From Acidobacteriota bacterium (GTDB taxonomy: Bacteria; Acidobacteriota; Vicinamibacteria; Fen-336; JAGNNV01): DNA of 64,000 nt. Position 1 is the stretch's first letter. Each line of letters starts with the position of its first letter. Positions 5,666-31,558 of the stretch are shown here, piece after piece. The stretch is from assembly GCA_032127745.1 (NCBI GenBank), contig JAQBHL010000235.1, positions 1,575 to 65,574 on the forward strand, written 5' to 3'. Under the pieces are notes generated by a model. It made no database searches, had not been told where the DNA came from, and worked only from the letters and a program-made list of their open reading frames with translations. The position numbers and the translations under genes are program-made.

Positions 5666-8140
5666 TTGATCAACGAGATCAAGTCGTACGAATTCGAGGA
5701 AATAGAGCGACGATGCCAGGAGCGGTGGCGAGCCGAGGGCACGTTCGAGGTGTCGGAGGACCCCACCCGACCCAAGTTCTACTGCCTGGAGATGCTGCCG
5801 TACCCCTCGGGCGACATACACGTGGGGCACGTGAGGAACTACTGCATCACCGACGTGGTTACCCGCTTCAAACGCATGCGCGGTTTCAACGTCCTCCATC
5901 CGATCGGCTGGGACGCCCTGGGATTGCCCGCGGAAAACGCCGCCATCAAGCACGGCACGCATCCCGAGGGCTGGACCCGCAGCAACATCGCGAGCATGAA
6001 AGCGCAGCTTCAGCGTCTTGGCTTCTCCTATGCCTGGAGTCGCGAAATCGCCACCTGCGACGCTTCCTATTACCGATGGAACCAGTGGTTCTTCCTGAAG
6101 ATGCTGGAGAGGGGCATTGCCTATCGCGCCAACTCCCCCGTCAACTGGTGTCCCTCCTGCCTGACTGTCCTCGCCAACGAACAGGCCGAGGGCGGACTCT
6201 GCTGGCGCTGCCGGAGCGTCATCGAGATCCGGGACATGGAACAGTGGTTCCTGCGGATCACCGACTATCAGGATGCTCTGCTCGACGACATGGAGGAACT
6301 GTCGGCCTGGCCGGAGCGTGTTCTGCAGCAGCAGCGCAACTGGGTCGGCCGCTCGGAAGGAGCGGAGGTTTCCTTTCCCACCGAGGACGGAGGGACGATC
6401 CGGATCTTCACCACCAGGATCGACACCATTTATGGCGCGACCTTCTGCCTGCTCGCTCCCGAACATCCCCTGGTGGACCAGCTCATGAACGGAGCCCCGA
6501 AGGAGAGCGCCCTGACCCTCGCCCGCCTGCGCGGCCAGGACCGCCGGGCCCGGCTCGCCGGCCAGGTCGAGAAGGAGGGCCTGTTCACGGGCCGCTACGC
6601 GAAGAATCCGTTCTCCGGCGAGCGGATCCCCATCTGGGTGGGCAACTTCGTCCTGATGGGCTATGGAACGGGCGCGATCATGGCCGTGCCCGCGCACGAC
6701 GAGCGCGACTTCGAGTTCGCCCGGAAGTACGGCCTGCGCGTTCATCCCGTCATTCAATCCCCCGAAGGCGCCCTGGACGGCGCCACCATGACGGAGGCCT
6801 ACACCGGGCCGGGAGTGGTGACGGGAAGCGCCGAGTTCGACGGCCTCGCCTCCGAGATCGCGATGGAGAAGATGTCTGCGCATGCGAGCGCCCACGGCTT
6901 CGGGGGAGTGAAGACCGCGTATCGACTCAAGGACTGGCTCATCTCGCGCCAGCGCTATTGGGGCACGCCCATCCCGGTGGTCTATTGCGACAAGGACGGG
7001 GTGGTGGGCGTGAGGGAAGCTGATCTGCCTGTCATCCTGCCTCCGGATGCGCCCTTCACGGGCGAGGGCGGCAACCCGCTGGAAAAGGTGGAGACCTTCG
7101 TCAGGGCCACGTGTCCGAAATGCGGCGGTCCGGCGCGCCGCGAGACGGACACCATGGATACCTTCGTGGATTCATCCTGGTACTTCTACCGCTACTGTTC
7201 TCCGACGACCGAGGACGCGCCGTTCGACAAGGCGGCGGTCAGGTACTGGTTTCCGATCGACCTCTACGTCGGGGGCATCGAACATGCCATCCTCCACCTC
7301 GTGTACTCGCGTTTTTGGACGAAGGTCATGAGGGACCTGGGGCTCATTGACTGGTCCGAGCCAGCGGCGCGGTTGTTTCCCCAGGGCATGGTGCACAAGG
7401 ACGGCGAGGTCATGTCGAAGTCGAAGGGCAATACCATTGCCCCCGACGACGTGATCAAGCGCTACGGCGCCGACACCCTCCGCCTGTATATCCTCTTCGC
7501 CGCCCCGCCTGAGCTCTCGATGGAGTGGAGCGAGACCGGAATCGAGGGTCCGCATCGGTTCCTGCTGCGGGTGTGGCGGGTGGTTCACAAGCGCGCGGGA
7601 ACCGCCTCCAGGGGTCGTGACTTCGCGAGTCTTTCCGAGAACGGAGCGGCCCTGCGCCGGAGGGTTCATCAGACCATCGCCCGGGTCACTGCGGACATCG
7701 ACGAACGCATCCATCTGAATACCGCGGTGGCGGCCCTGATGGAGCTGACCAATGACATCTACCGGCTGGAGGAGGGGCTCACCGGCGACTCCGACGAGGC
7801 CGCCCTCGGCGAGGCCCTCGATACCCTCGTTCTGCTGCTGAGTCCGTTCGCGCCGCACGCCTGCGAGCAGATGTGGTCGGATCTGGGGCACCCGAAGAGC
7901 CTGGTCGACGAAGCCTGGCCGGAGGCCGACCAAGCGGCCATGCGCGAAGACGCCAATGAAGTGGCGGTCCAGGTCAACGGCCGGATACGCGGCCGGGTGA
8001 TGGTGCCGGCTTTGGCCGACGAGGCCGCGCACAAGGCCCTGGCCCTCGCCGAACCCGGGGTGAAGGCGCAGGTCGAGGGAAAGACGCTGGTCAAAGCCAT
8101 CATCGTCCCCGGGCGACTCGTCAATCTGGTGGTGAAGTGA
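5666..8140 (+). CDS. leuS: Leucine--tRNA ligase
   Basis: 824 aa with HIGH-type motif (DIHVGHVRNY), KMSKS-type motif (VMSKSKGN) and a CP1 editing domain. Confidence 0.95.
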   Translation: MINEIKSYEFEEIERRCQERWRAEGTFEVSEDPTRPKFYCLEMLPYPSGDIHVGHVRNYCITDVVTRFKRMRGFNVLHPIGWDALGLPAENAAIKHGTHPEGWTRSNIASMKAQLQRLGFSYAWSREIATCDASYYRWNQWFFLKMLERGIAYRANSPVNWCPSCLTVLANEQAEGGLCWRCRSVIEIRDMEQWFLRITDYQDALLDDMEELSAWPERVLQQQRNWVGRSEGAEVSFPTEDGGTIRIFTTRIDTIYGATFCLLAPEHPLVDQLMNGAPKESALTLARLRGQDRRARLAGQVEKEGLFTGRYAKNPFSGERIPIWVGNFVLMGYGTGAIMAVPAHDERDFEFARKYGLRVHPVIQSPEGALDGATMTEAYTGPGVVTGSAEFDGLASEIAMEKMSAHASAHGFGGVKTAYRLKDWLISRQRYWGTPIPVVYCDKDGVVGVREADLPVILPPDAPFTGEGGNPLEKVETFVRATCPKCGGPARRETDTMDTFVDSSWYFYRYCSPTTEDAPFDKAAVRYWFPIDLYVGGIEHAILHLVYSRFWTKVMRDLGLIDWSEPAARLFPQGMVHKDGEVMSKSKGNTIAPDDVIKRYGADTLRLYILFAAPPELSMEWSETGIEGPHRFLLRVWRVVHKRAGTASRGRDFASLSENGAALRRRVHQTIARVTADIDERIHLNTAVAALMELTNDIYRLEEGLTGDSDEAALGEALDTLVLLLSPFAPHACEQMWSDLGHPKSLVDEAWPEADQAAMREDANEVAVQVNGRIRGRVMVPALADEAAHKALALAEPGVKAQVEGKTLVKAIIVPGRLVNLVVK

Positions 8141-8688
8141 TGCCCGGCTCTAAAGCCCCGCGCCCGAGGTCTGGCCTGGTTCTCGCTTCCCTGGCTCTCC
8201 TCAACCTGAGCAGCTGCGGGTACGGCCTGGTGGGGCGAGGCGGCGGCCTGGATCCGTCGCTCAAGAAGATCGCCGTTCCGCTGTTTCGTGATGCCACCGG
8301 CCGGACCAGCCTCGATCGGAAGATCACGGAGAAGGTCATCGAGGAACTCCTGAAGCGGGGGAAGGTCGACGTCGTCCAGACCATCGAAGGTGTGGACGCG
8401 ATCGTCGATGGCGAAATCGTCTCCTACCAGGTTCAACCGGTCGGATTTTCCGGCGGCGCGGACTCGACCACGGCCAGCCGGTACTCGATCACCCTGACCG
8501 CCCGAGTCCGGTTTTCGAAGCCCGGCGAAACCCAGGCGATATGGCAGAACGACGCTTTCGTCTATCGCGATGAATACGATCTTGGCTCGGACCCGTCCAC
8601 GTTCTTCGACCGCGAAGATCAAAGCGTCGACCGTCTGGCCCTGGCCTTCGCGCGAAGCCTGGTGGCGGCGATGCTGGAGGCGTTCTAG
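8137..8688 (+). CDS. lptE: LptE-like LPS-assembly lipoprotein
   Basis: Lipobox LLNLSSC followed by GYGLVGRG. It overlaps the leuS stop by 4 nt, matching the conserved leuS-lptE synteny. Confidence 0.6.
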   Translation: MMPGSKAPRPRSGLVLASLALLNLSSCGYGLVGRGGGLDPSLKKIAVPLFRDATGRTSLDRKITEKVIEELLKRGKVDVVQTIEGVDAIVDGEIVSYQVQPVGFSGGADSTTASRYSITLTARVRFSKPGETQAIWQNDAFVYRDEYDLGSDPSTFFDREDQSVDRLALAFARSLVAAMLEAF

Positions 8689-8702
8689 CCGGGGGCTCGA
8701 AC

Positions 8703-9488
8703 TCAGGGCCGGCGACCGCCCTTGCTTTCGTCCAGCTCTTCAGCACCCGGGTCGAAGAGCACGCGGAGGCCGGGCATGGCGTACTTCTTGAGCTCGGCCT
8801 CGTATTTCCCGAAGAGAACCTCGTTTTCGGGGGCGGTGCGCATCTCGGCCAGGCCCTTCGAAACCTCGCGAGAGCTCGCGGCCAGGTCGACGCCCGCCTG
8901 AGCGAGCGCCTCCCGGGCCTCCTTGGGCAGGGTCTCGACCCCGTTGCCTTTCATTCCCTTCATGGCCTCGGCCGCAGCCTGGCCCGCGATGGCCGCGCTC
9001 TCGATCGCCATCTTCCCCTCTTCTCCGAAGCCCTTCGCCATCGATTTGTAGACCTCGGCGGTGATGAACTCGTACTCCCGTTCCGACATCCCGTGCCTGC
9101 CCAGGGCCAGGGTTTCGGCCCGCCGGATCTCGCCCATGAGGGTGAGGCCGGTGGAGATGTCGCTGAAATCAACCGGCTTGCCCTCCTTGACCCTGGCCAT
9201 CCGGGATTCGATCTCCCCCCGGTATCGCTCGTAGACCGAAAAAACGCTGGCCCGGATCTCGATGAATCGAACCAGACGGTCCTCCGCGACCACGTGGTCG
9301 GGGGGGCGAACGAAGGGCACGGCATTCGCGGCCTTCCGAGCCTCCTCCACCGCGGGGCCGCCCCCGGTGACCTCCTCCATCTTGCCCTTGGCCCAGTAGC
9401 CGAGTCCGACCACTCCGGCCACGAAAAGGAAGACCGCGATGATCGACAGGGCCAGGCATCCGATAGCAAACTTCATCCAGGGTTTCAT
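8703..9488 (-). CDS. Hypothetical membrane-anchored protein
   Basis: The internal Met start MKPWMKFAIGCLALSIIAVFLFVAG gives one N-terminal TM segment plus a helical, Lys/Glu/Ala-rich soluble part. No family recognised. Confidence 0.5.
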   Translation of the reverse strand: MKPWMKFAIGCLALSIIAVFLFVAGVVGLGYWAKGKMEEVTGGGPAVEEARKAANAVPFVRPPDHVVAEDRLVRFIEIRASVFSVYERYRGEIESRMARVKEGKPVDFSDISTGLTLMGEIRRAETLALGRHGMSEREYEFITAEVYKSMAKGFGEEGKMAIESAAIAGQAAAEAMKGMKGNGVETLPKEAREALAQAGVDLAASSREVSKGLAEMRTAPENEVLFGKYEAELKKYAMPGLRVLFDPGAEELDESKGGRRP

Positions 9489-9572
9489 GATGGCTCCAGA
9501 CTCCACACGAAGCGGGCGGGCCGAATGGTACCTCGAACCCTCCGGTCGACCCTGTGACCATATACTGCGGCC

Positions 9573-9842
9573 ATGGAACCGACCTGGCATGACGGTCTTT
9601 CGCGCTCGGCGCTGGTGCAACTCGTCGAAGGCTTGCTTACGGCGATTGATCGGACTGTTCCCAAACTCGACGCCGTGGCCCACCACCTAGGGCTCCTCTC
9701 GCAGCAGGCGGAGGAGTTCGAGGTCGTGGGCGGAGTGGCCGATCAGGTGGCGGATATGTCGGACGAGCTCTACGCCGCCTCCGACCGCGAGCGGCTGAGG
9801 GAGTGGGGCAACGCCATTGATACTCCGGACAAGGCGCACTGA
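9573..9842 (+). CDS. Hypothetical small acidic protein
   Basis: 89-aa ORF in an otherwise unassigned gap. Composition is plausible but no motif was recognised. Confidence 0.3.
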   Translation: MEPTWHDGLSRSALVQLVEGLLTAIDRTVPKLDAVAHHLGLLSQQAEEFEVVGGVADQVADMSDELYAASDRERLREWGNAIDTPDKAH

Positions 9843-9961
9843 CCATCGAAAAACCGAAGCGGTGAAAGAAGCGGGCGAACCGGAGCAGCTTGTGCCGATG
9901 CGGCGCGCGCCTGCCTCTCCGCTGATCGTGCGCCCGTCCGGCCGAGCGCGGGGCTGAGTCC

Positions 9962-11431
9962 TTGAGTCTGTCCGGCCGCATCGAAGACCTGCCTCTTCTG
10001 GACATAGTCCAGATCGTGGCCTTCACCCAGCGAACCGGGTATATCCGGGTCGAGACCGAAGTGGGCGTTGGCGCCATCGTGTTTCGAAACGGGCGGGTGG
10101 TCGCCTGCTTCTCGCCCGGATCGTCCGAGCGAGTTCCCCGGACCGCGCTGGCCCCGGCGGAGTGGGAAAAGCGTCTCACCGCCGGAATCGCCGCCGACCT
10201 CGGAGCCCTGTCGCGGCTTCGCGACGGCAATTTCGGGTTCGTGCTTTCGAACGAAGTTCCCAAGCAGATCGAGGGCTACTCGCTGGAGCGGGAGACCCTC
10301 ACGGTGGGCGTGGACGCCCAGGAGCTTCTGCTGGATCTGGCCCGGGAGCTGGACGAGAGCCGGCGCGACGCCGCCACCGCTTTGGGGGCGCCCGAGGCCG
10401 CCCCGGCCATCGAGACGCCCATCCCGCCGGTGGCCAGGGGCACGGAGGTTCGGCCCTCCGTGCTGGTCGTGGACGACGAGCCCGATGTCCGCTCCTTTCT
10501 CATGAAGCGGCTGGTGGAGGGCGGTTACGAGGACGTGGTCGGAGCGGCCACGCTGGAGTCGGCCCTTCAACTGGCGCAGCAGATGGGTCGGGCCGGGTCC
10601 ATGTTTCTGGCCGTGGTGGATCTGTCGATTCCCGACCCCACCGGCGGGGAGCTTTCGGGGGGCCTGGAACTGACCATGCGCCTGCGGGGCTTCGCCAACG
10701 CTCCCCGAGTGGTGCTCGTGACCCCGGACCCGGACCCGAGCATCGTCCGGAAGGGGCGTCAGGCCGGCGCCCGGCGGGTGGTGTTCCGGCCCACTCTGGG
10801 CCGTCTCAACAAGGACCTCTTCGAACGTCATCTTGACGCCTTCTCGACCAAGCTCGTCAGGGTTCTCAGGCAGGTCACAGATGGCCGCCCGCATGGCTCA
10901 GTGGCCTCCGCCGCCCCGATTGGTCTCATCGACGGTCTCGACCTGCTCGGTTGCATCGCGGAGAGTGTCGGCATTCGCGATCTGCTCCTCCGGGTCGCGA
11001 GCGGTATGGTGGAACGGGTCATCCTCCTCATCCGCAGCGAGGACATCCTTTATCCGGCCTCGGGGGTGGGCTTTCCCCTCGGGCCGATGGGGTTCGACCT
11101 CACCCTCTCGGCCTACACCTCGCCTTTCGCCGAGGCTCTTCAGGGTCGCGCGGCTCAGAGCTTCGTGAGCGATGGGGGGTTCTGGAAGGAGATGTCGGCT
11201 CTGTCCATCCTCCGGGGTCGCTCACTGGAGGCGGCCCTCATTCCTCTGCGGGCCCACGGGGATGCGGTCGCACTGCTTTTCGTGGATAACCCGATCTCCG
11301 GGGAGGCTTTGACCCGGCTCGATCCACTTGAAGCCTTTGTCGAGGAAGCCGGCCGGCGACTGGAGGAACTCCGGGACCAGGATATGTCTCGAACCGGCAC
11401 CGTGACCAGAAGGGATACGATTCCGAGGTAA
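9962..11431 (+). CDS. Response regulator with N-terminal DUF4388 (PATAN-type) domain, receiver domain and C-terminal GAF-like domain
   Basis: DUF4388 signature LSGRIEDLPLLDIVQIVAF...GYIRVE, receiver block SVLVVDDEPDVRSFL and a C-terminal ~170-aa GAF-like region. Starts with TTG. Confidence 0.7.
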   Translation: MSLSGRIEDLPLLDIVQIVAFTQRTGYIRVETEVGVGAIVFRNGRVVACFSPGSSERVPRTALAPAEWEKRLTAGIAADLGALSRLRDGNFGFVLSNEVPKQIEGYSLERETLTVGVDAQELLLDLARELDESRRDAATALGAPEAAPAIETPIPPVARGTEVRPSVLVVDDEPDVRSFLMKRLVEGGYEDVVGAATLESALQLAQQMGRAGSMFLAVVDLSIPDPTGGELSGGLELTMRLRGFANAPRVVLVTPDPDPSIVRKGRQAGARRVVFRPTLGRLNKDLFERHLDAFSTKLVRVLRQVTDGRPHGSVASAAPIGLIDGLDLLGCIAESVGIRDLLLRVASGMVERVILLIRSEDILYPASGVGFPLGPMGFDLTLSAYTSPFAEALQGRAAQSFVSDGGFWKEMSALSILRGRSLEAALIPLRAHGDAVALLFVDNPISGEALTRLDPLEAFVEEAGRRLEELRDQDMSRTGTVTRRDTIPR

Positions 11432-11508
11432 TCGATGGCTGACTCAACCAATCGCTATCGGGAGTTGTCCGATTTCTTCGTCAAGACTCAGGACCTCGTC
11501 AGGACATC

Positions 11509-12252
11509 GTGCGCGAGAACGCGCAGTTGCGCGCCTGTCTGCGCGCCTTCGAATCGCTGGGCCAGAACGCTGAGGAGGCCGAGGTTAAGGCCCGGCTGCT
11601 CCGGTCCGAAGAAGAGCGCATGGCGCTCGACCGCAACTTCGGGCAGGCCCAGGGCGAGCTTCTGGGCATCCGGAAACAACTCATGGAGTCCACCCAGCGC
11701 TTCGCCGATTTGACCGAGCAGGTGGACCTCCTCACCAACCTGCACGTCGCCGCCTCCCAGCTCCACGCCTCCCTGGATCCCGCAGCGGTCCTCCGCTCGA
11801 TTCAGGAGATCGCGACCAACCTGGTGGGGGCGGAGGCGTTCCACGTCTTCATCGTCGATGAGAAGACCGGCCGTGCGGAACTGGTTCTGTCCGAGGGCCA
11901 GGAGGCTCTGACGAGCAGCGTGGGCCCGGGCGAGGGCATCATCGGCGCCTGTCTGGAGTCGGGCCTGCCGCACTTCGCCACCGATCCTCGCGTGCGGGCC
12001 GCGACTCCGTTCGAGGCTCCCCTCGCCGTGATCCCCTTCGACCTCAGCGGGGCGGTGGTGGGCCTTCTGAGCATCCACAAGCTCTTCCAGCAGAAGACCG
12101 CCTTCAGTGAACTCGACTTCGAGCTCTTCCGGCTCCTGGGCGCCCAGGCCGCGACCGCGGTGTTTGCCTCGCGCCTGCACATGACCTCGGAAAGGAAGCT
12201 TGCCACCCTTCGCGGCTTCATCGACATGCTCAAGGGGCCGGCCGGCCCCTAA
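11509..12252 (+). CDS. Coiled-coil + GAF domain protein (paralog A); the N-terminus is probably disrupted by a frameshift from an ATG at 11435
   Basis: It aligns with the 17134-17862 protein (LTNLHVAASQLHASLDPAAVLRSIQEIATNLVG versus LANLYVATFKLHGSLERPEVLAAITEILVNLVG). A 22-aa ORF starting 4 nt after the upstream stop continues naturally into this frame. Confidence 0.65.
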   Translation: MRENAQLRACLRAFESLGQNAEEAEVKARLLRSEEERMALDRNFGQAQGELLGIRKQLMESTQRFADLTEQVDLLTNLHVAASQLHASLDPAAVLRSIQEIATNLVGAEAFHVFIVDEKTGRAELVLSEGQEALTSSVGPGEGIIGACLESGLPHFATDPRVRAATPFEAPLAVIPFDLSGAVVGLLSIHKLFQQKTAFSELDFELFRLLGAQAATAVFASRLHMTSERKLATLRGFIDMLKGPAGP

Positions 12253-12306
12253 CCACTGATCGTGCTCGCCGGTGCGAGAGGAGCCGGCCTCGGCTTGGGC
12301 GGGGTC

Positions 12307-13335
12307 TCAGGATCGGGGCAGCATCTCGAGGATTTCGGACGCAATGTTCTGCAGAGGGACGATACGGGAGGCACCTCCCAACGAGATGGCCTCCTTGGGC
12401 ATTCCAAACACCACCGAGGAGGCTTCGTCCTGAGCGATGGTCTGAGCGCCTCGATTTCGCATCTCCAGAAGGCCGGCCGCGCCATCGCGACCCATTCCGG
12501 TGAGCAGGGCCCCCACGCTCCGTGGCCCGAAAGCCTCGGCCACGGAGCGAAACAGGACGTCGACGCTCGGGCGGTGCCGGTTGACGGGGGGCGCGGTGTC
12601 GATCTGAACCACGAAGCGAACCCCGTCCCGGATCACGGACATGTGCCGGTTGCCGGGGGCCAGTAACACCTCGCCCTGCCGGATCGGGTCTCCATCCTCC
12701 GCCTCCTTGACCTGCATGGGCGAGAGGCCGTTCAGACGTCCCGCGAAGGCCTTGGTGAATCCTCCGGGCATATGCTGAACTACAAGCACCGCCGGGGAAT
12801 CGCGCGGCATGGCTCCGAGGAGAAGGGCCAGGGCCTCGGTGCCGCCGGTCGAAGCGCCGATGGCCACCACCCACGAGGCGGCGATGCCTTTCGGAATCTG
12901 GGGTGGCGGCAGGCGCGGGGTTCTCAGGGGGAAGGGTCCGCGCTTCGACATCGCGGCGGCGCGAACCGTATCCACGAGAAGGGTCGCGGTATCGCTCAAG
13001 AAGTCCTTGACCCCGAGGCGGGGTTTGGGGAGGACGTCGATGGCCCCGCGCGCCAGGGCCTCGATCGCCACCGCCGCGTCCTCGCCCGCCCGGGCCGAGC
13101 AGATCACCACCGGAATCGGATCGGTGGCCATGAGCCGGGTGAGAAAGGTCAGACCGTCCATCCCCGGCATTTCGATGTCGAGAACGATCACCTGCGGTCG
13201 GCGGATGGCGATGCGCCGTGACGCGATGAAGGGGTCCGCGGCCAGGGCGACCTGGAACTCGCCGGACCGCTCGAGGAGTTCCTTGAGGGTCTGGCGAACC
13301 AGGGCGGAGTCGTCGACCACCAGGACATCGATCAT
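12307..13335 (-). CDS. cheB: Chemotaxis protein-glutamate methylesterase
   Basis: Receiver MIDVLVVDDSALVRQ...VLDIEMPGMDG and catalytic domain with IGASTGG. The start is trimmed from the 523-aa track ORF, and an ATGA overlap links it to cheR. Confidence 0.9.
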   Translation of the reverse strand: MIDVLVVDDSALVRQTLKELLERSGEFQVALAADPFIASRRIAIRRPQVIVLDIEMPGMDGLTFLTRLMATDPIPVVICSARAGEDAAVAIEALARGAIDVLPKPRLGVKDFLSDTATLLVDTVRAAAMSKRGPFPLRTPRLPPPQIPKGIAASWVVAIGASTGGTEALALLLGAMPRDSPAVLVVQHMPGGFTKAFAGRLNGLSPMQVKEAEDGDPIRQGEVLLAPGNRHMSVIRDGVRFVVQIDTAPPVNRHRPSVDVLFRSVAEAFGPRSVGALLTGMGRDGAAGLLEMRNRGAQTIAQDEASSVVFGMPKEAISLGGASRIVPLQNIASEILEMLPRS

Positions 13336-14201
13336 GACCTTGCCATCTCGGGCTTCCGGTAGATCGCGGGTTTCACCGGACGCTGGCCTTCGATTACCCC
13401 GACCAGACTTTCGGCGTGTCCCACGAACAGAAACCCCCCCGGCTTCAGCGCGCGCCACATGTGATCGATGACCTGGCGCTTGGTCTCCCGGGCGAAGTAG
13501 ATGAGGACATTGCGGCAAAGCACGAGGTCGAAGCTCGCTGCCGGCGCCGAAGGCGCAAGCAGGTTCATTGGCTCGAAACGGATGAGGCGGGCGGGGGAGG
13601 CCCGAAGGCGGATCCGGTCTGCGCCCGCGCTTTCGAAGCACCGGGCGTAGGCGGGCGGGATCTCCTTTTCGCGGGCTACTGGAAAGGTGAGAGTGCGCGC
13701 CGTCGCGAGGGCCCGAGTGGAAAGATCGCTGGCGAAGATGCTGATGCGGTGGCCCTCGGCGGCAGGAAGGCGGGAATCGAGCACGGCGGCGAGGCTCGCC
13801 GGCTCCTCGCCGGTCGAGCAGGCCGCGGACCAGATCTTCCGTTCCCGGTCCAAGGCGTCGCCTTTTTCCCGGCGCCATTGCGGGATGATCGTCTGCTCCA
13901 GAAACTCGAACTGCCAGCCCTCCCGGAAAAGCCTCGTTTCGTTGGTCAGCAGCCGATCGACCAGTTCGGCCATTTCCTCCTTTGGATGCGCGTCCAGATG
14001 CGCGACGTAATCCCGGTAAGAACGCAGCCGCAATTCCCTCAGTCTCCGGCCCAGCCGGGCCATGATCAGCGCCCCTTTGGCCTCGGTCAGGTGAACGCCG
14101 GTGTGGCTCTCCATCAACAGGCGTATCCGGGCGAACTCCCGCGGGCCGAGTTCGGGCAGAGCGGTCGGATCCGGGACCGGAGGCGGGCTCGTGCGCTCCA
14201 T
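13332..14201 (-). CDS. cheR: Chemotaxis protein methyltransferase
   Basis: CheR N-terminal helical domain plus SAM-binding IWSAACSTGEEPASLA. Confidence 0.9.
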   Translation of the reverse strand: MERTSPPPVPDPTALPELGPREFARIRLLMESHTGVHLTEAKGALIMARLGRRLRELRLRSYRDYVAHLDAHPKEEMAELVDRLLTNETRLFREGWQFEFLEQTIIPQWRREKGDALDRERKIWSAACSTGEEPASLAAVLDSRLPAAEGHRISIFASDLSTRALATARTLTFPVAREKEIPPAYARCFESAGADRIRLRASPARLIRFEPMNLLAPSAPAASFDLVLCRNVLIYFARETKRQVIDHMWRALKPGGFLFVGHAESLVGVIEGQRPVKPAIYRKPEMARS

Positions 14202-14251
14202 GAGCCTGTTCTAGGGGCGCGCTTCAGGGACCGCGGAAGCCGGGCGTTGCT

Positions 14252-14803
14252 TCACCTGGAACCATTTCCGGAGGCCAGGTCACGAACCGCGACCTGCTCG
14301 TTCGCGGAGAGGATCCGGTCGAGGTCGATGGCGAGCGCGAATCCGTCATCGAGCTTGAAAAGGCCCTGCAAAAACTCCACCCGGATCTGTGTTCCCACAC
14401 TGGGGGGAGGCTCGAGATCGGCGGGGGCGAGATCATGGATCTCGCTGACCAGGTTGGTCACCAGGCCCAGAGTGCTGGTTTCGCCGCCGAGGTCGGCCTC
14501 GACCAGAACGATGCAGGTCCACTCATCGGGAAGGATGGCCGGTTCGGAGAATTTCACCGCCAGGTCGATCACCGGAACCACTCGGCCACGCAGATTCATC
14601 ACGCCCTTGACCCAGGGCGCGGTTTGAGGGACGGGAGTGAGGGCCACGTGACGGATGATCTCCAGCACCTGGGTCAGCGGAATCAGGTACTGCCCCTTCC
14701 CGATCCGGCAGCGCAGCATCGACCGTTGCGAGCGGGAGGACGAGGCGTTCGGGGCCAGCGGAGGGGATTGGGTAAAGGTCATGGGCGTTCTCTGCAACCT
14801 CAT
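14252..14803 (-). CDS. cheW: Chemotaxis coupling protein
   Basis: CheW fold block YLIPLTQVLEIIRHVALTPVPQTAPWVKGVMNLRGRVVPVIDL. The start overlaps the cheA stop (TGATG); an alternative Met lies at 14782. Confidence 0.85.
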   Translation of the reverse strand: MRLQRTPMTFTQSPPLAPNASSSRSQRSMLRCRIGKGQYLIPLTQVLEIIRHVALTPVPQTAPWVKGVMNLRGRVVPVIDLAVKFSEPAILPDEWTCIVLVEADLGGETSTLGLVTNLVSEIHDLAPADLEPPPSVGTQIRVEFLQGLFKLDDGFALAIDLDRILSANEQVAVRDLASGNGSR

Positions 14804-16500
14804 CAGGACGCCTGCGCCGCGCGCAGCGCCACGGTTCGCTTCATGATGTCGGGAATGTCGAGGATCAGGCCCACGCAGCCATCTCCGAGGATGGCGGCAC
14901 CGAAAACGCTGGTGGCGCTTCGAAGGGCCCGCCCGATGGATTTGACCACGACCGGGGTGTCTCCGATCAGGGCGTCAACAATAAGACCCAGCCGGTGCCC
15001 GGCGTGTTCGACCACCACGATGTGACGATCGAGAGAACCGGCGGTGCCGAGAATCTGCTCTCCAAGCCTCAACACCGGGACCATGCCGGAGGGGAGGCGA
15101 AGCAGGGCGGTGCCGTCGGTCTGATAGGCGAGATCCTTCGGGGTGGCCAGGCACTGCTGGACCATGTCGATCGGGATCAGGTATCGATGAGAGGCCACTT
15201 GCACCAGCAGGCCCCGCAGGACGGCGAGAGTCAGGGGGAGGCGCACGCGGAAGAGGGTTCCCATCCCCGGCTTCGAGAGGACCTCGATGGATCCGGCGAG
15301 GTTCTCGATGGAGGATCTGACCGAATCGAGTCCGACCCCCCGGCCCGAGATCTGCGAGAGCTCGGCCGCGGTGGTGAGACCGGTGGCGAAGACCAGTTGG
15401 GCGGTTTCCCGGTCGTCGTCGCTGGTCTTGATACCCAGGGCCTCGGCGCGTTGGCGGATGGCCGCGAGGTCCAGACCGCCGCCATCGTCCTCGACCTCGA
15501 TCACAACCTGACCGGCGGCGGGAGAGGCGGTCACCGAAATCCGTCCGATCGCGGGCTTGCCCTTGGCCCGCCGGGTGGCGGGGTCCTCGACCCCGTGAGC
15601 GACCGCGTTACGCACCAGGTGCAGCAAAGCCTCGCTGAGACGATCGACCAGGGCCAGGTCGACCTCGACCTCCTCGCCCGAGATGTGCAAGACCACTTCC
15701 CGGCCCAGGCTCTCGGCCACATCCCGAGCCGTTCTTCGCTGGGAAGCCAGAATGGGACCGAGGGGCACCAGGCGAATGCCCAGGGCCAGGTCGGAGAGCC
15801 GGCCCAGCAGAGGCGTCGCCTCCTCGAGCGCGTCGCGCGTCTCGTCGGACAGGCCCGGCGAAGCCAGGAGGTTCTCGAGGCGGCCGCGGGAGACGGAAAT
15901 CTCGCTCGCCAGTTCGACCAGGGCATCGACGCGGGAGGTCTCGATACGCAGAGTCGGACGGGCCGCGCGAGCGTCCTCGGCGGTTTCTGGTTCGTGGCCG
16001 ACGTCGCCTCCGGTGGCGCGCATCAGGTCACTGGCCCGGCGCCCCCGGGAGCGCTTCCGTTTCCCGCCGCTTGGAGGGGTGTCCCCGGGCTCGCGGGAAG
16101 CCGGCGCGCCGAGGCTTCGCAGGTCCAGGGCCAGGCGTTGCTGGGCCAAAGACATCTGGTCCCCTGCCCGGGCCATCGGCAGGGCCAGCCGGATGGCATC
16201 CACCGCCTTGAGGAGAACGGCGATTGCCGCCTTCCCGGCGGGCTGGCGCTTCCTGATTCCCGACTTGACCACGGCCAGAGCGTCCTCGAAAGCATGGGCG
16301 AGGTGGGTGATCGAGTCGAAACCGAAGATTCCCGCATTGCCCTTCAGGGTATGAGCGTCGCGTTGGAGCGCCTCGATGGGGGAGTCGCTCCCTGGATCGT
16401 GCTCCAGGTCGAGGATCGCGGACTCCATCCTGATCAGGCGCTCCTCGGACTCCGCCAGGTTGACCTGCCGGAGGCGTTCCCAGTCGACGTCATCGTTCAT
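14803..16500 (-). CDS. cheA: Chemotaxis histidine kinase
   Basis: HPt H-box DAHTLKGNAGIFG, dimerisation and HATPase_c domains (GRGVGLD) and a C-terminal CheW-like P5. No fused receiver. Confidence 0.9.
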   Translation of the reverse strand: MNDDVDWERLRQVNLAESEERLIRMESAILDLEHDPGSDSPIEALQRDAHTLKGNAGIFGFDSITHLAHAFEDALAVVKSGIRKRQPAGKAAIAVLLKAVDAIRLALPMARAGDQMSLAQQRLALDLRSLGAPASREPGDTPPSGGKRKRSRGRRASDLMRATGGDVGHEPETAEDARAARPTLRIETSRVDALVELASEISVSRGRLENLLASPGLSDETRDALEEATPLLGRLSDLALGIRLVPLGPILASQRRTARDVAESLGREVVLHISGEEVEVDLALVDRLSEALLHLVRNAVAHGVEDPATRRAKGKPAIGRISVTASPAAGQVVIEVEDDGGGLDLAAIRQRAEALGIKTSDDDRETAQLVFATGLTTAAELSQISGRGVGLDSVRSSIENLAGSIEVLSKPGMGTLFRVRLPLTLAVLRGLLVQVASHRYLIPIDMVQQCLATPKDLAYQTDGTALLRLPSGMVPVLRLGEQILGTAGSLDRHIVVVEHAGHRLGLIVDALIGDTPVVVKSIGRALRSATSVFGAAILGDGCVGLILDIPDIMKRTVALRAAQAS

Positions 16501-16539
16501 GATTCACGGTTCATGATTCACACGGGGTTCATGATTCAC
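16495..16539 (-). repeat. Three direct copies of GTGAATCATGAAC spanning the cheA start codon and its leader
   Basis: On the plus strand, gttcatgattcac occurs at about 16495-16507, 16509-16521 and 16527-16539. On the coding strand each copy carries ATGAAC. Confidence 0.85.
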
Positions 16540-16567
16540 GCGGGACTCGTCTCAGGGTGATCGCCGA

Positions 16568-17086
16568 TCACCGGGCGGACGCTACTCCCTCGCCGGCCGG
16601 GCCGGCCGCGATGGTCGCGGTGGTGGACGAAGTCCCCTCAATGGTCTTGACCTCGAGGATACCCGTTCCGGTGCGGAAGCGAAGCCGCCGCGCGTGGGCG
16701 CCGCCGACATCCTCGAAGCCCACTTCGATGCCGTGGCGGCGCAGCACGCTGCGCGCCATCTCGGCATTGCGCCCGCCCAGACTGTCTCCTTGGGCTCCGA
16801 TCAGTCGGCCCACATTGGCGCCGCCCACGATGCGGGCCTCAAGGTCGCCGGGTCTCGACCCGGAGGCGAACAGACACTGAACCAGGTCCTCACAGGAGGT
16901 GTCGCCGTAGCGGCTGCGCTCGCGAGCGCTTCCTCCTCCCACCGCGAGGAGGAAGTGGTTCATGCCCCCTATCCCGCGAGCCCGGTCAAAAAGGCACACG
17001 GCCACGCATGGACCCAGGATGGTCGTCAGTTCCGCCGGTTCGTGAGGAACCACCCACTGGCCAGGCAGCAGGAAGATCTGCTTCAT
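16568..17086 (-). CDS. cheD: Chemoreceptor glutamine deamidase
   Basis: MKQIFLLPGQ...LGPCVAVCLFD...GGMNHFLL matches the CheD family. The start is trimmed from the 341-aa track ORF. Confidence 0.85.
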   Translation of the reverse strand: MKQIFLLPGQWVVPHEPAELTTILGPCVAVCLFDRARGIGGMNHFLLAVGGGSARERSRYGDTSCEDLVQCLFASGSRPGDLEARIVGGANVGRLIGAQGDSLGGRNAEMARSVLRRHGIEVGFEDVGGAHARRLRFRTGTGILEVKTIEGTSSTTATIAAGPAGEGVASAR

Positions 17087-17133
17087 TTGGGCTGGGCGTT
17101 GCTTCCGTTGTGGCAGGGCTGGTTCCGGGGCGC

Positions 17134-17862
17134 TCAGGCTCGAGAGACGAACAGAGCGGTGGCGGCGTGGGTGGTCAAAAGGTCCATGAGTTCGAGGTCC
17201 ACGTCGCCGAAGCTCCCGCCCTTCTGGGGGAGAAGGGAGAACAGGACTACGGCGCCGCTGAGATCGGATCCCAGGCGCAGGGGAATCACTGCGGTGACAT
17301 TGTCCGGCACCGGAGACGCGGGCAGGGGGTCCCGGCCCGCGATCCATGGGCCGCTGGCCTCGAAGATATCGGCCACGAAACCGGACCCCGCCGGGAGCTC
17401 CTTGATCGGACACGGGTGCGACGGAAATTCTCCAATGAGCTTCAGGTCGCCACTCAACCGCTCGAAGATCCCGAAGTTCTCGCAGCCCACGAGGTTCACC
17501 AGAATTTCCGTGATGGCGGCCAGCACCTCGGGGCGCTCGAGCGAACCGTGAAGCTTGAAGGTGGCGACGTAGAGATTGGCCAGACTCGTGCACTGCTGCT
17601 CCACCAGGGCGGACCGCTCGATATCCCGGCGGTTCTGGGCCAGCGCCTCATCCAGAACGTGTTTGAGCTTCACTCGCTCGGCTCGATGAGCGTCGCGATC
17701 CTCGCGCAGGCTCGAGAGTTCTTCGGAAATCCTGGTGTGCTTCTCTTCGAGTGACGCCACCAGGGACTTGAGCCGCTCGTTCTGCTCGAAGAGCTCCTCG
17801 GCGTGCTGGTGGGCGGACGCGGTCAGTTTCTGAACGAAGGCGCTCTTGTTGATGCGTGTCAT
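17134..17862 (-). CDS. Coiled-coil + GAF domain protein (paralog B), embedded in the che operon
   Basis: About 95 aa of heptad-like, Glu/Leu/Arg-rich N-terminus followed by a GAF-like domain. It is a paralog of 11509-12252 and sits between cheY and cheD with 3-nt and 47-nt gaps. Confidence 0.7.
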   Translation of the reverse strand: MTRINKSAFVQKLTASAHQHAEELFEQNERLKSLVASLEEKHTRISEELSSLREDRDAHRAERVKLKHVLDEALAQNRRDIERSALVEQQCTSLANLYVATFKLHGSLERPEVLAAITEILVNLVGCENFGIFERLSGDLKLIGEFPSHPCPIKELPAGSGFVADIFEASGPWIAGRDPLPASPVPDNVTAVIPLRLGSDLSGAVVLFSLLPQKGGSFGDVDLELMDLLTTHAATALFVSRA

Positions 17863-17865
17863 CGA

Positions 17866-18240
17866 TCAGTCATCTCCCAGGAGGGCGCGAACCTTGGCCA
17901 CCAGCTCCGTCGCGTTCACGGGCTTGGTGACGTAGTCGTTGCAGCCGGCGGCGAAGCCCTGAGCGATGTACTCTTCCTCGCCCCGGGTGGTGATGAGGAT
18001 GACCGGGATCAGGCGCGTGACCTCGTTCTGCCGCAGGGCCCGGCACGCCTCGATGCCGTTCATCCGGGGCATCATGACGTCCATGACCACCAGATCCGGA
18101 GGGGATGCGACGGCCTTGTCGACCGCCTCCTGTCCGTCCTTGGCCGAGACGACGTGGTACGGCTGTCGACCCAGCAGCATGGTGTTCATCATGAGCGCGG
18201 TGGGGGAGTCGTCGACGACGAGCACAGTCTTTTTTGGCAT
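17866..18240 (-). CDS. cheY: Single-domain response regulator
   Basis: MPKKTVLVVDDSPTALMM...VVMDVMMPRMNG...DYVTKP, 124 aa. The start is trimmed from the 279-aa track ORF. Confidence 0.85.
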   Translation of the reverse strand: MPKKTVLVVDDSPTALMMNTMLLGRQPYHVVSAKDGQEAVDKAVASPPDLVVMDVMMPRMNGIEACRALRQNEVTRLIPVILITTRGEEEYIAQGFAAGCNDYVTKPVNATELVAKVRALLGDD

Positions 18241-18487
18241 TGGCAGGTTGCTTCCGATGGAATGGTGGGGGTTGAGCCTACTTCCGCGCCCGCTGAGAGT
18301 TAAACGCCAGGCCACGTTAAGGCCTCTTGTGGGGTGTTCAAAATCGAGATGGAGAGAACCCCCAGCCTCCATGGGCCCGGAATCGCGGAAGAGCGGCGCC
18401 CGGACGGGCTTGGTAGACTGGCTCGTGTTGCCGAGCCATAACTCTTCTCCCCCTGACTGGCAGCCCATTTCTCTGGCCTCGCCGTTC

Positions 18488-19843
18488 GTGGCGCCGATCG
18501 AGCCGAAACGGGTAGGGCTGATCAGCCTCGGCTGCCCGAAGAACCTGGTGGATTCCGAGGTGATGCTCGGATCGTTGAAGCGCCGTGGCCACCAGATCGC
18601 CACCGATGTCGCGTCGGCGGACGTGATCGTGGTCAATACCTGCGCGTTCATCGACCGGGCCAAGCAGGAGTCGATCGACACCGTGCTCGAGATGGCGAGG
18701 CTCAAGACCCACGCCCCGGACGGCTACCCACGTCGTCTCATCGTCACCGGTTGCCTGGCCGAACGGCACGATGCCGACCTGCGTCGCGAGATCCCGGAGA
18801 TCGACGCCACCCTCGGAACCGGCCAGATTCCCGAGATCGTGGCCGCGGTGGAAGGGCGGGCCACCATGGTCGATCGCACCGCGAAGCGACCCGAATGGAT
18901 TTATGACGCGGATTCTCCACGGTTGCAGTCGACCGCTTCCCACACCGCCTTCGTCAAGATCTCCGAAGGCTGCGACTACACCTGCACGTTCTGCATCATT
19001 CCGACTCTGCGTGGGCTGCACCGTTCCCGGCGACCTGAAGACATCGAGAACGAAGTGCGACGCCTGGCCGCGGCGGGGGTCAGGGAGATTGTCCTGGTGG
19101 CGCAGGACTCGACCCGATACGGTCTCGACCTGGGACAGCGTGGCGCCTTGGCCCCGCTTTTACGGCGCCTCGGCCGAGTCGAGGGCCTGCGCTGGATCCG
19201 GGTGATGTACGCGTATCCCTCGACCGTCACCGACGAGATCCTCGACGCCATCGCGTCTGAGGAACGCGTGGTCAAGTACGTCGACATGCCTTTGCAGCAC
19301 GCCAGTGAAGCGGTATTGAAGCGTATGAAGAGGCCCACGGGTAAGGGGAACCTGCTCGGAATGGTCGAGCGGGTCCGCGAGCGGGTTCCGGGCGTGGCCT
19401 TCCGGACCACCTTCATCGTTGGCTTTCCCGGCGAGACCGAGGGTGATTTCAAGCAGCTGACAAGGTTCGTGGAACAAGCCGAGTTCGACCACCTGGGCGT
19501 CTTCACCTACTCGGACGAAGAGGGAACCGCCGCCTTCGATCTTGCCGGGCGGGTTCCGGCCAGGGTGAAGAAGGCCCGGCAGAGCGAGCTCATGCGCATC
19601 CAGAAGAAGATCTCGCTGCGGCGGAACAAGGCGCGGGTAGGGCAGCGGATGGAGGTCCTGGTGGAGGGTCCTCATCCCGATACCGATCTGCTGCTGGTCG
19701 GCCGGCTGGCCTCGCAGGCGCCGGAGATCGACGGTTCGGTGTTGATTTCCGATCCCGGCGAGACGCCACCGGGCCGGGGCGAGTTCGTGACCTGCGAGGT
19801 CACGAAAGCCCACAGCTACGACCTCGAAGTCCGGGTGGTTTGA
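18488..19843 (+). CDS. rimO: Ribosomal protein S12 methylthiotransferase
   Basis: N-terminal VGLISLGCPKNLVDSE, radical SAM triad EGCDYTCTFCIIP and a C-terminal TRAM domain. The start is uncertain: GTG at 18488 gives a typical 451 aa, and an in-frame ATG at 18371 is the alternative. Confidence 0.85.
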   Translation: MAPIEPKRVGLISLGCPKNLVDSEVMLGSLKRRGHQIATDVASADVIVVNTCAFIDRAKQESIDTVLEMARLKTHAPDGYPRRLIVTGCLAERHDADLRREIPEIDATLGTGQIPEIVAAVEGRATMVDRTAKRPEWIYDADSPRLQSTASHTAFVKISEGCDYTCTFCIIPTLRGLHRSRRPEDIENEVRRLAAAGVREIVLVAQDSTRYGLDLGQRGALAPLLRRLGRVEGLRWIRVMYAYPSTVTDEILDAIASEERVVKYVDMPLQHASEAVLKRMKRPTGKGNLLGMVERVRERVPGVAFRTTFIVGFPGETEGDFKQLTRFVEQAEFDHLGVFTYSDEEGTAAFDLAGRVPARVKKARQSELMRIQKKISLRRNKARVGQRMEVLVEGPHPDTDLLLVGRLASQAPEIDGSVLISDPGETPPGRGEFVTCEVTKAHSYDLEVRVV

Positions 19844-27410: not shown

Positions 27411-27491
27411 AAGACGAAGGCAGTGCCGCGCTCGCCCGGCGGCGTGTCGCCTGGGTCTAGAATCACCGGGGGTCCGCAGGGAGGATTTTTT

Positions 27492-28979: not shown

Positions 28980-29034
28980 TGAGGAGAAACTCCACCTCGC
29001 GCACGAAGTTGAATCGCGCCCGGATAGCCAGCAG

Positions 29035-30411
29035 CTAGGCGGGCCGGGGAGGGCGCTCTCCCCCGTCTGATCCGTTGCCGGCGAGCGCCAGACAGACGAA
29101 GAGAAGGAAGGCCCAGGTCGCGTTCGCGGGAATGCGGAAGACGGAGTCGACGAGGGCATGGGTGAGCGCGGCGGCCAGGCCGGCGAGCGCCGGTCGCGCG
29201 TGGATGTCTCGGAAGGCGCGAGGCGCGGCGATCCAGGCGAGCCGGACCAGGTAGGCGGTCAATAGCACTCCGAGGAATCCGCCCTCGATCATCCATTGGA
29301 GGTACTCGTTGTGCGCGTGCGGCCAGTATTCGTAGCGCACCACCCGCTGATAGGGCCAGTAGGCGGGCGCGAACGCTCCGATCCCGCAGCCGAAGAATGG
29401 GAAGAACTCGACCAGTCGAAGAACGTCCCGCCAGACCAGCAGGCGACTGGCCTCGAAATCGACATCCGCCATCCGCATGAAGGCGGCGGGGACGCCGGTG
29501 GCGAATAGAGCGAGGGCGAGGAGTCCGACCGACGCGAGCGCCAGTTTCGGCCGCGGGCACAGGGCCGGGGCCAGCGCGACGGCAAGGCCCACCCCAAGCG
29601 CGATCAGCCCTCCGCGCGACCCGGAAGCGGAGTTGGCGACAATGATGAGGATCAAGGCCATCAGAAGCGCGAGGTTCCGGGCGAACTGAGCCGATCGGGT
29701 GAAGGCCGAAAGGCTCCTCAAAGTCCCGTCCCTCGCGGCCAGGCCGAGCAGTCCGGCGGCGACGGACCCGGCCATGGCCAGGAGATTGGAGTAGTGGTCG
29801 CGGTTGTAGTATGGCCCGAAGATCCCGGCCTCGTGATCTCCAATGCCGGGGACACGATAGACGCCGTACAGCCAGTATGGATGAGAGGACCTGGATTGAA
29901 TCAAGCCCTCCAGAGCCAGCAGGCCGCCCACGCACGCCATACCCAGGAAGAGAACCTTCGTCCTTTGGGCCCGAGTCGAGAGAGACCCGCCGAACCCGGC
30001 GACGGCGAGTCCGTGGAGGCCGGCGATGAAGAGCCAGGCCTGTAGAGTCCCGGTCGAACTCACGGTCAGGGGCGCCCAGGCCGGGATCGCGGGCGGAGGC
30101 ACGAAGTGAGCCGCGAACGATCCCGGGGAAACGCTTCGCAGCACCGAGGATGGCAGTGGGATGAGTTGCAGGGCGAACAGGATGTGCAGGGCGACCATGG
30201 ATCTCGGCATCGGGTTAAGGCGGCCCGCGAACGGGACCGAGGCTGACCGCCGCCTGGCCGCCCAGGCGCAGGCGCCGAGAAGGATCCAGAGCCAGGCCAG
30301 CGACTGCCAGACTCCAAGTCCGACCGCTCCAAACATGAACGGTGCGAGCAGGGCGGTGGCCAGGGCCAGGGAGGCGCAGGCGCCGGAGGCACGATTTGGG
30401 TCGAAGGTCAC
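29035..30411 (-). CDS. Wzy_C / O-antigen-ligase-like polytopic membrane protein (cassette 1)
   Basis: At least 10 predicted TM segments and the Wzy_C signature WPHAHNEYLQWMIEGGFLG. Confidence 0.75.
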   Translation of the reverse strand: MTFDPNRASGACASLALATALLAPFMFGAVGLGVWQSLAWLWILLGACAWAARRRSASVPFAGRLNPMPRSMVALHILFALQLIPLPSSVLRSVSPGSFAAHFVPPPAIPAWAPLTVSSTGTLQAWLFIAGLHGLAVAGFGGSLSTRAQRTKVLFLGMACVGGLLALEGLIQSRSSHPYWLYGVYRVPGIGDHEAGIFGPYYNRDHYSNLLAMAGSVAAGLLGLAARDGTLRSLSAFTRSAQFARNLALLMALILIIVANSASGSRGGLIALGVGLAVALAPALCPRPKLALASVGLLALALFATGVPAAFMRMADVDFEASRLLVWRDVLRLVEFFPFFGCGIGAFAPAYWPYQRVVRYEYWPHAHNEYLQWMIEGGFLGVLLTAYLVRLAWIAAPRAFRDIHARPALAGLAAALTHALVDSVFRIPANATWAFLLFVCLALAGNGSDGGERPPRPA

Positions 30412-31112: not shown

Positions 31113-31205
31113 CTTATTCGGGCTCCGGCCTCCCCCCCCGGCTTCAAGCACAGCGTCATGAGGCGCTAGACTTCAGGAGATCGATCAAGAACTGGAGACC
31201 TAACC

Positions 31206-31508: not shown

Positions 31509-31558
31509 CCGGGACAGGCAGCTCCTTTCACCAGACACCAGCACGCGGGATCAGGCAT

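Follow-up and report, generated by a model that had tools for sequence, protein, structure and literature searches.

The nearest described systems to the locus considered here are the Tax/Pix pathways of cyanobacteria, which include PatA-type regulators (PixG, PixE, and TaxP), a CheY protein (PixH), a methyl-accepting chemotaxis protein, or MCP (PixJ), and a CheA protein (PixL). In these pathways the signal reaches the type IV pilus motor through the PATAN domain (bioRxiv 10.1101/2021.06.11.447907; PMC11181946), and in Synechocystis the PATAN domains of PixE and PixG bind PilB1 and PilC (bioRxiv 10.1101/2021.06.11.447907). Archaeal che operons encode CheF, which binds phosphorylated CheY (CheY~P) and, with ArlCDE, links it to the motor (PMC2666748, PMC7534055). 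The subject of this analysis is a Che operon in a 64,000-nucleotide stretch of contig JAQBHL010000235.1 from an Acidobacteriota bacterium; the term “window” refers to this whole stretch. The operon contains, and a second small gene group converging on it also contains, a gene for a protein that combines a coiled coil with a GAF domain (cc-GAF1 and cc-GAF2). In all tested features but the receptor, the operon is an ordinary Che-type chemosensory pathway. It lacks a receptor gene because about 2 kb was cleanly deleted, recently and in this lineage only.

Loss of the receptor gene at the rimO-cheY junction

An initial reading of the DNA from its letters and open reading frames (the sequence-only reading) had noted that no MCP gene lies in or near the operon. 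This holds across the 64 kb of the window, to which the MCP search was restricted: neither tblastn with the Tsr signalling domain (best E 1.4) nor Pfam scans found an MCP signalling domain. The window has a G+C content of 65%, and the sequencing runs that carry its sequence are marine-sediment metagenomes. Its nearest public relatives are metagenome-assembled genomes (MAGs) labelled Vicinamibacteria, a class within the Acidobacteriota. A total of 88 loci, denoted by L numbers, were annotated by tblastn with the window proteins and the relatives' MCPs as queries. Six species-representative MAGs (L009-L014, with L007 and L014 given together) encode a cc-GAF1 that is 82-86% identical to that of the window, and all six have the gene order MCP > cheY > cc-GAF > cheD > cheA. 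The rimO gene directly precedes the MCP gene in the five whose contigs reach that far, and in the four with long enough contigs cheW, cheR, and cheB come next, followed by cc-GAF2 and the PATAN gene in convergent orientation. A more distant relative (L001, 51%) has two MCP genes at the rimO-cheY site. An MCP gene is therefore ancestral at this position, being present at the orthologous site in seven of the seven relatives examined and absent from the window. The sequence-only reading had named a standard MCP matching this Che class as one observation that would speak against its own proposal of a new receptor-like role for the cc-GAF proteins, and such an MCP is what occupies the rimO-cheY site of the relatives.

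Homology between the window and its relatives breaks at position 18259, 19 bp upstream of cheY, and resumes at 18457, 55 bp upstream of rimO. The 197 bases of filler between these points have no counterpart in the relatives and occur only in the window, L004, and L006. Searches of the 271-bp rimO-cheY spacer for an MCP remnant (blastn-short and blastx) gave chance words only. That the missing MCP gene is an assembly artefact of the window is barely credible. The window does have at least one consensus error (a G missing after position 11500), but the same junction is found in one NCBI MAG and in the Logan assemblies of two runs, which were made separately (L004-L006), and contigs of four runs aligned to a relative's locus show a joint that skips 1987 bases, at a depth of 8-12.

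The relatives' MCP has two transmembrane (TM) segments, a HAMP domain, and 2-4 canonical methylation sites. Aligned with E. coli Tsr (class 36H), it has symmetric 7-residue gaps, so that each arm is shorter by one heptad; this is consistent with a class 34H receptor. Four other loci (L026, L064, L072, and L086) have che clusters with a cc-GAF gene and no MCP gene inside the fetched flanks, and in three of these (L064, L072, and L086) the last genes are cheB > cc-GAF > cheY; the window may therefore not be alone in having a receptor-less cluster of this class. The full receptor-modifying set without a receptor is a product of recent gene loss and not of a new mechanism, which stops a false lead. 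Comparing the window lineage with its receptor-bearing sisters offers a natural way to follow what becomes of a Che pathway once the cognate receptor is lost.

The genes that remain follow the order cheY > cc-GAF1 > cheD > cheA > cheW > cheR > cheB on the minus strand, and all calls were upheld with Pfam and NCBIfam, as the sequence-only reading had them. It had likewise placed rimO at the boundary, correctly; this housekeeping gene bounds the cluster in the window and, by synteny, in all relatives. The features, in window coordinates, are as follows.

12307-13335, minus strand: cheB, receiver plus methylesterase (Pfam CheB_methylest 1e-65; NCBIfam CheB 6e-116, over cutoff)
13332-14201, minus strand: cheR methyltransferase (Pfam CheR_N and CheR)
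14252-14803, minus strand: cheW (Pfam CheW 5e-32)
14803-16500, minus strand: cheA, with P1 (Hpt), P3, P4, and P5 and with P2 absent (Pfam Hpt, H-kinase_dim, HATPase_c, CheW)
16568-17086, minus strand: cheD, predicted deamidase (Pfam CheD 1e-19; NCBIfam CheD 7e-33)
17134-17862, minus strand: cc-GAF1 (Pfam GAF_3, 35.8 bits, cutoff 27)
17866-18240, minus strand: cheY, a stand-alone receiver and the first gene of the operon (Pfam Response_reg 6e-30)
18260-18456, no strand: deletion scar of 197 bases, replacing about 2.0 kb with the MCP gene of the relatives
18512-19843, plus strand: rimO (Pfam UPF0004, Radical_SAM, TRAM_2)

The very short or overlapping junctions reported earlier are borne out by these coordinates, with overlaps of 1-4 nt (cheA/cheW, 1 nt; cheR/cheB, 4 nt) and gaps of 3-67 nt (cheY/cc-GAF1, 3 nt; the others, 47-67 nt). 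A promoter and terminator scan of the operon gave nothing over shuffled expectation. The domains of CheA match Pfam at E-values of 2e-13 (Hpt), 1e-15 (HATPase_c), 1e-15 (CheW), and, weakly, 1e-3 (H-kinase_dim). The translation of cheY retains the DD, D54, T, and K-P residues, and that of cheB has the motifs GASTGG, QHMP, and GRDG, which are presumably catalytic. CheD, as read directly from its translation, has Thr21, Cys27, and His44, presumably at the catalytic positions of Thermotoga maritima CheD. The cluster encodes no CheC, CheX, CheZ, or FliY detectable with Pfam or NCBIfam. The absence of cheC beside cheD, which had been presented as an oddity, is thus real as far as seen, but it is not odd: Geobacter genomes have 2-3 cheD genes and 1-2 cheC genes (PMC2577667).

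Judged by their substitution patterns, the remaining che genes are intact, under purifying selection, and not detectably decaying. The tests were Tajima-type relative-rate counts, with L001 as the outgroup, and Nei-Gojobori (NG86) ratios of nonsynonymous to synonymous divergence (dN/dS). CheA, CheW, CheR, CheB, and CheD have 53-64 substitutions unique to the window against 60-66 unique to the relative, which is balanced. Pairwise dN/dS is 0.10-0.20 for the che genes (e.g., about 0.10 for cheB against the relatives and 0.13-0.17 for cheR), the same range as between MCP-bearing relatives. CheY alone has an excess, and a marginal one: 5-7 substitutions are unique to the window and 1 to each relative (p 0.03-0.10). 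It may reflect an early adjustment to the loss of the receptor, or just noise. The synonymous divergence (dS) between the window lineage and the relatives is about 1, and the deletion could be far younger; the tests therefore exclude long-term pseudogenisation but leave room for fresh orphaning.

A freshly orphaned, non-functional operon whose decay is still to come is the explanation that such a young deletion would allow, and we consider it decidedly unlikely. The cognate MCP gene has been lost, the same metagenomes contain no assembled close orthologue of it, and the excess in CheY would fit a first step of decay; against this, all nine genes are intact in read-level data, the only frameshift, that in cc-GAF2 of the window, is absent from all four run assemblies, and CheA, CheW, CheR, CheB, and CheD are unaccelerated with low dN/dS. 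MCPs, moreover, are commonly encoded away from che operons (PMC2577667). Because the remaining genes are intact and under purifying selection, an MCP elsewhere probably feeds the pathway, and by analogy with bacteria whose receptor genes are dispersed (PMC2577667) a different MCP encoded elsewhere is its most likely input.

A family of coiled-coil-GAF proteins next to CheY

The AlphaFold 2 model of cc-GAF1, built from a 59-sequence alignment (mean predicted local distance difference test score, pLDDT, 92), has a single unbroken 99-residue helix (residues 6-104) followed by a GAF domain. Foldseek searches with cc-GAF1 return generic GAF structures only, with E-values down to 7e-7; the best structural matches, by Foldseek and a PDB profile search, are cAMP-bound Lcd1, the GAF domains of phosphodiesterases (PDE) 2, 5, and 10, and the GAF domain of a Geobacter MCP. 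The nearest solved folds are thus GAF domains that bind cyclic nucleotide monophosphates. By sequence, the PDB offers only generic GAF or coiled-coil matches, no NCBIfam model matches the proteins, and Pfam names nothing in them beyond “GAF”. In the literature library searched, no paper reports a coiled-coil-GAF gene as a member of che clusters. The family is real and apparently undescribed, and the conserved, CheY-linked module is the actual novelty of this locus.

The family comprises at least 826 clusters at 50% identity (E<=1e-10) and is found in at least 553 loci in one-genome-per-species data. Among the best 150 clusters, most members are 210-305 residues long (range 160-344), and a typical member has about 250 residues. 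The acidobacterial hosts are Vicinamibacteria, Thermoanaerobaculia, Holophagales, Blastocatellia, and Chloracidobacterium; the others are Nitrospirota (Manganitrophus and Thermodesulfovibrionales), Polyangiales, Planctomycetota, Rokubacteria, and Fischerbacteria. The most conserved part is the junction between helix and GAF domain, [RQ]Y[VIL]E[VI]E[QE][QE]N.N-LANLYVA[ST][YF].LH, in which LANLYVA..LH is invariant. A motif in the last helix, D.EL..LL..HAATAL, is also strongly conserved, and the segment that usually forms the pocket lid of a GAF domain is the least conserved part of the family. Among the longest members there are no fusions of a receiver (REC) domain to a cc-GAF protein; what makes these members longer is either a frameshifted tail or N-terminal sequence of no relation. 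The name “regulator of replication initiation timing”, which the Joint Genome Institute (JGI) gives to family members, was dismissed as an annotation artefact of the coiled coil.

The genomic company of the family was examined in a species-representative set of 80 loci with 83 cc-GAF genes. In 70 of the 83, a stand-alone receiver gene is directly adjacent on the same strand, upstream in 56 and downstream in 14; the upstream pattern is cheY > cc-GAF, and the downstream pattern is mostly cheB > cc-GAF > cheY. At least four kinds of che gene are present in 45 of the 80 loci, and the typical order is cheY > cc-GAF > cheD > cheA > MCP > cheW > cheR > cheB. The sequence-only reading had proposed checking whether a cc-GAF gene between cheY and cheD is kept in relatives. 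It is: cheY > cc-GAF > cheD > cheA recurs in Acidobacteriota of several classes, with examples from Vicinamibacteria, Holophagales, Thermoanaerobaculia, Blastocatellia, and Chloracidobacterium, and in other phyla such as Nitrospirota and Myxococcota, down to about 32% identity. About 20 loci have a cc-GAF gene without che genes, usually with an adjacent receiver gene. Where cheD is missing or elsewhere (L051, L059, and L074), the cc-GAF gene remains with cheY. The constant partner is therefore the receiver domain and not the receptor, CheW, or CheD. Outside che operons the neighbours include hybrid PAS/GAF kinases (L015 and L035), and a receiver plus cc-GAF pair is adjoined by EAL phosphodiesterase genes in L003 (8460-11274) and L016 (686-3958), by a GAF-adenylate/guanylate cyclase gene in L067 (9900-12155), and by a gene for a PilT/PilB-type ATPase in L053 (9599-12177). 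These last neighbours are hints of ties to cyclic nucleotides and to the pilus motor.

This company bears directly on the earlier proposal that sensory input to the array may come from the cc-GAF proteins, which would replace the MCP for CheW and CheA and as the target of CheR, CheB, and CheD. In favour of it are the lack of an MCP gene in the 64 kb, the long helix of cc-GAF1, which resembles a receptor arm, and a single strict methylation-consensus match in cc-GAF1; 4 of the 45 clusters, from other lineages, also have no MCP gene within 10 kb. The proposal is nonetheless highly improbable. An MCP gene accompanies the cc-GAF gene in 41 of the 45 clusters, which therefore argues that the cc-GAF protein is no receptor substitute, and in every close relative; in the close relatives (L009-L014) and in L001 it encodes a TM-HAMP-MCP receptor. 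The state of the window is a derived deletion. The cc-GAF proteins have no similarity to the MCP signalling hairpin, and they also occur with a receiver gene alone where no che genes are present. The EE/QE pairs that had been cited as possible modification sites are not conserved in the family. A strict methylation/deamidation consensus, [ASTG][ASTG]xx[EQ][EQ]xx[ASTG][ASTG], is matched 2-4 times in control MCPs, once in cc-GAF1 (SALVEQQCTS, residues 84-93), and not at all in cc-GAF2, and any strict site is present in only 14 of 59 family members. The one match in cc-GAF1 has flanks that vary across the family, and genes with no cheD, cheR, or cheB in the vicinity show equal conservation of the E-[EQ]-[EQ]-N motif, which argues against the suggested role as a substrate of CheR, CheB, or CheD.

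Two other roles were considered for the cc-GAF protein. In one, the cc-GAF protein would be a CheC-like partner of CheD, with a receptor-mimicking helix that regulates deamidation. CheC, in the work of Chao et al. from 2006, reportedly binds CheD by receptor mimicry; the cc-GAF gene occupies the slot beside cheD in about 48 loci, and in the window clade the strict receptor-consensus match at residues 84-93 would suit such a helix. We judge this role very unlikely, as the cc-GAF gene stays with cheY when cheD is absent or elsewhere (in L051, L059, and L074 and in every copy that groups with cc-GAF2), lack of cheD makes no difference to the conservation of the motif, and the small-residue flanks of the consensus are absent in most members. 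In the other, the cc-GAF protein would be the CheY~P phosphatase of this Che class, a functional analogue of CheZ, CheX, or CheC whose long helix would offer one acidic and one amide side chain. CheZ works from a long coiled coil. The cluster lacks the known phosphatases, the cc-GAF gene is tied to cheY, and a near-invariant Glu followed by [EQ][EQ]N lies on the helix just ahead of an invariant Asn. The CheC/CheX signature D/S-X3-E-X2-N-X22-P is, however, not satisfied, with Tyr at -4 and Leu at +23 (in an alignment read by eye); most members have only E-X2-N, and the window clade has E-Q-Q-C, with Cys in place of Asn. No CheZ, CheX, or CheC is among the Foldseek matches, and a phosphatase role is unlikely on balance.

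Probable output regulators and the proposed pathway

Two genes on the plus strand converge on cheB.

9962-11431, plus strand: response regulator of the PATAN (DUF4388)-REC type whose C-terminal domain is GAF-like (Pfam DUF4388 4e-15, Response_reg 9e-10)
11435-12252, plus strand: cc-GAF2, long helix plus GAF domain (Pfam GAF_2 3e-11, 44.3 bits, cutoff 28.6)

The first gene had been read as a DUF4388-REC-GAF regulator. Its DUF4388 and receiver domains score above their Pfam cutoffs (56 bits, cutoff 25, and 39 bits, cutoff 30.2), but a GAF domain is not supported by sequence: the C-terminal 170-200 residues have no Pfam match at E<=5, and hhalign of this domain against the cc-GAF family gives a probability of 0.4%. 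In the AlphaFold 2 model (pLDDT 73), the best match of the protein is to the REC+GAF dual-sensor kinases 6oaq and 6ob8 over about 335 columns, so that the C-terminal domain may, with moderate confidence, be called GAF-like by fold and not by sequence. The PATAN-REC gene is syntenic in all close relatives, and a contig of a distant relative (32%) has cheR > cheB > PATAN-REC > GAF (278 residues) on one strand; this regulator is a probable second output regulator of the pathway.

The paralogy of the second gene with cc-GAF1 stands, with 37% identity across the GAF part, but the start that had been given to it at 11509 does not. The gene starts at ATG 11435, directly past the PATAN stop codon, and its first 22 codons are in another frame in the window, where one G is absent after base 11500. 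The longest clean open reading frame (ORF) in the window is 11509-12252 (247 residues), and the real product has about 272 residues. Because the missing G is present in the relatives and in contigs of all four runs that carry this population, the 11509 start is a frameshift artefact, and the window sequence most likely lost the G through a consensus error. All four runs likewise differ from the window at 11666 (G>C). In Vicinamibacteria, cc-GAF2 is paired with the PATAN-REC regulator.

The reading that we favour, and hold to be fairly probable as a whole, is that the operon encodes an intact Che pathway whose receptor gene was deleted, that an MCP encoded elsewhere in the genome feeds it, and that the cc-GAF proteins are output or adaptor modules that partner receivers. 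This MCP would control CheA through CheW in a still-functional pathway. Following established Che biochemistry, CheA would phosphorylate CheY, CheB, and probably the PATAN-REC regulator, and CheR, CheB, and CheD would adapt the receptor. From adjacency and anatomy, cc-GAF1 may be a dedicated coiled-coil partner that binds CheY or CheY~P, and cc-GAF2 may do likewise for the PATAN-REC regulator. Both proteins probably form dimeric coiled coils, with the conserved junction bundle as a candidate docking site, and would act as an output adaptor and not as a receptor. The PATAN domain, by analogy with cyanobacterial PatA-type regulators, would address a type IV pilus motor. The GAF domain may integrate a small ligand, possibly a cyclic nucleotide; binding in the cc-GAF pocket is possible from the nearest folds and the EAL and cyclase neighbours, a case weakened by the variability of the pocket.

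Several observations weigh against this reading. That an MCP is present elsewhere in the genome is an assumption, as the search covered 64 kb. Contigs with at least 80% nucleotide identity to the ligand-binding region of the relative's MCP are absent from the four metagenomes, where many unrelated MCPs match the universally conserved hairpin (L009, 9023-9256) and nothing else of the gene; simple relocation of the MCP gene is therefore unlikely. If the deletion is very recent, the selection tests would be blind to the difference between a working pathway and a freshly orphaned one. The Pfam scans of the other large ORFs of the window found no pilus, flagellar, or receptor genes, which bears on the supposed output. 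The variable pocket lid argues against one small ligand shared by the family. No adjacent receiver gene was detected for 13 of the 83 cc-GAF genes, among them copies from Thermoanaerobaculia. In four loci of that group (L020, L024, L029, and L031, about 6500-10800 in each), the cc-GAF gene overlaps the 3' end of another gene, whose product has about 1150 residues; the one scanned (L020) has a PD40 beta-propeller and an amidohydrolase domain. No receiver or che gene is near, so that the family occurs here in a different context.

A bolder version of the favoured reading can be offered only tentatively, and we would not expect all of it to hold. The cc-GAF proteins would form a new, widespread class of CheY-binding adaptors: dimeric, docking a phosphorylated receiver through LANLYVA..LH and HAATAL, taking a second input (possibly a cyclic nucleotide) through the GAF domain, and thereby giving Che pathways in Acidobacteriota, Nitrospirota, and their relatives an output other than the flagellum, for instance the type IV pilus motor. 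The window lineage would then be a receptor-deleted variant that heeds another MCP or kinase. The cc-GAF proteins are a concrete, testable candidate for the means by which a stand-alone CheY passes on its signal in non-flagellar Che systems. They are also a large, unnamed, and uniform family, and the chemosensory class to which they belong is widespread in Acidobacteriota and in several other, poorly studied phyla.

The remainder of the window contains housekeeping genes, an exopolysaccharide locus, and genes for Tol-Pal, ParAB, RecN, MiaB, and a type III polyketide synthase. The exopolysaccharide-type locus (27423-39105) lies about 9 kb from the che cluster and includes two Wzy_C (O-antigen ligase-like) genes (29035-30411 and 37798-39105), a Wzz/GNVR plus P-loop tyrosine-kinase-type gene (34034-36298), and a gene for a CarboxypepD_reg protein. 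The type III polyketide synthase (44159-45760, chalcone/stilbene synthase family) is beside an FAD-dependent monooxygenase (42718-43914). A second radical-SAM methylthiotransferase, a MiaB/RimO paralogue that cross-matches RimO in tblastn, is at 52124-53449; it adjoins recN (50396-52105, named by eye from the N-terminal sequence), and parA/parB-like genes (53696-55310, also named by eye) lie downstream of it. Two ORFs with good third-position GC have no Pfam match: 8703-9686 (327 residues), which is syntenic with an unannotated 257-residue gene between the PATAN regulator and lptE in the relatives, and 55345-57411 (688 residues).

Comparison with described chemosensory systems

The Tax/Pix systems share with this locus a Che-like operon, a stand-alone CheY together with a PATAN-REC regulator, and GAF domains in the pathway. 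The GAF domains of Pix, however, are bilin-binding sensors inside the MCP, whereas those considered here belong to separate coiled-coil proteins of about 250 residues encoded next to the receivers. The MCP of the relatives is an ordinary HAMP receptor with a periplasmic domain, CheD, CheR, and CheB are present, and the PATAN regulator of the window has an additional C-terminal GAF-like domain.

Archaeal CheF is, like the cc-GAF gene, a conserved and lineage-restricted accessory of che operons, and the part of a dedicated CheY partner is the one proposed here for the cc-GAF proteins. The two have no relationship in sequence or fold (CheF is DUF439, in contrast to a helix plus GAF domain). The CheC-CheD pair of Bacillus subtilis and Thermotoga maritima resembles the present arrangement in that a gene lies directly upstream of cheD in an operon without other phosphatases. 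The cc-GAF protein differs in having neither the CheC fold nor the CheC/CheX signature, and its gene follows cheY, not cheD, when the two are separated.

The Frz and Dif systems of Myxococcus xanthus and the Wsp and Chp systems of Pseudomonas also combine a Che core and adaptation enzymes with non-flagellar outputs through receiver proteins. Their outputs are coiled-coil or other non-DNA-binding modules (e.g., FrzS and AglZ, in which a receiver is joined to a coiled coil). These systems differ from the window, but not from its relatives, in that the cluster still includes an MCP gene of its own. To our knowledge, no Frz, Dif, Wsp, or Chp system has a coiled-coil-GAF protein. In contrast to the FrzS and AglZ type, the coiled coil and the receiver are on separate polypeptides in the cc-GAF case.

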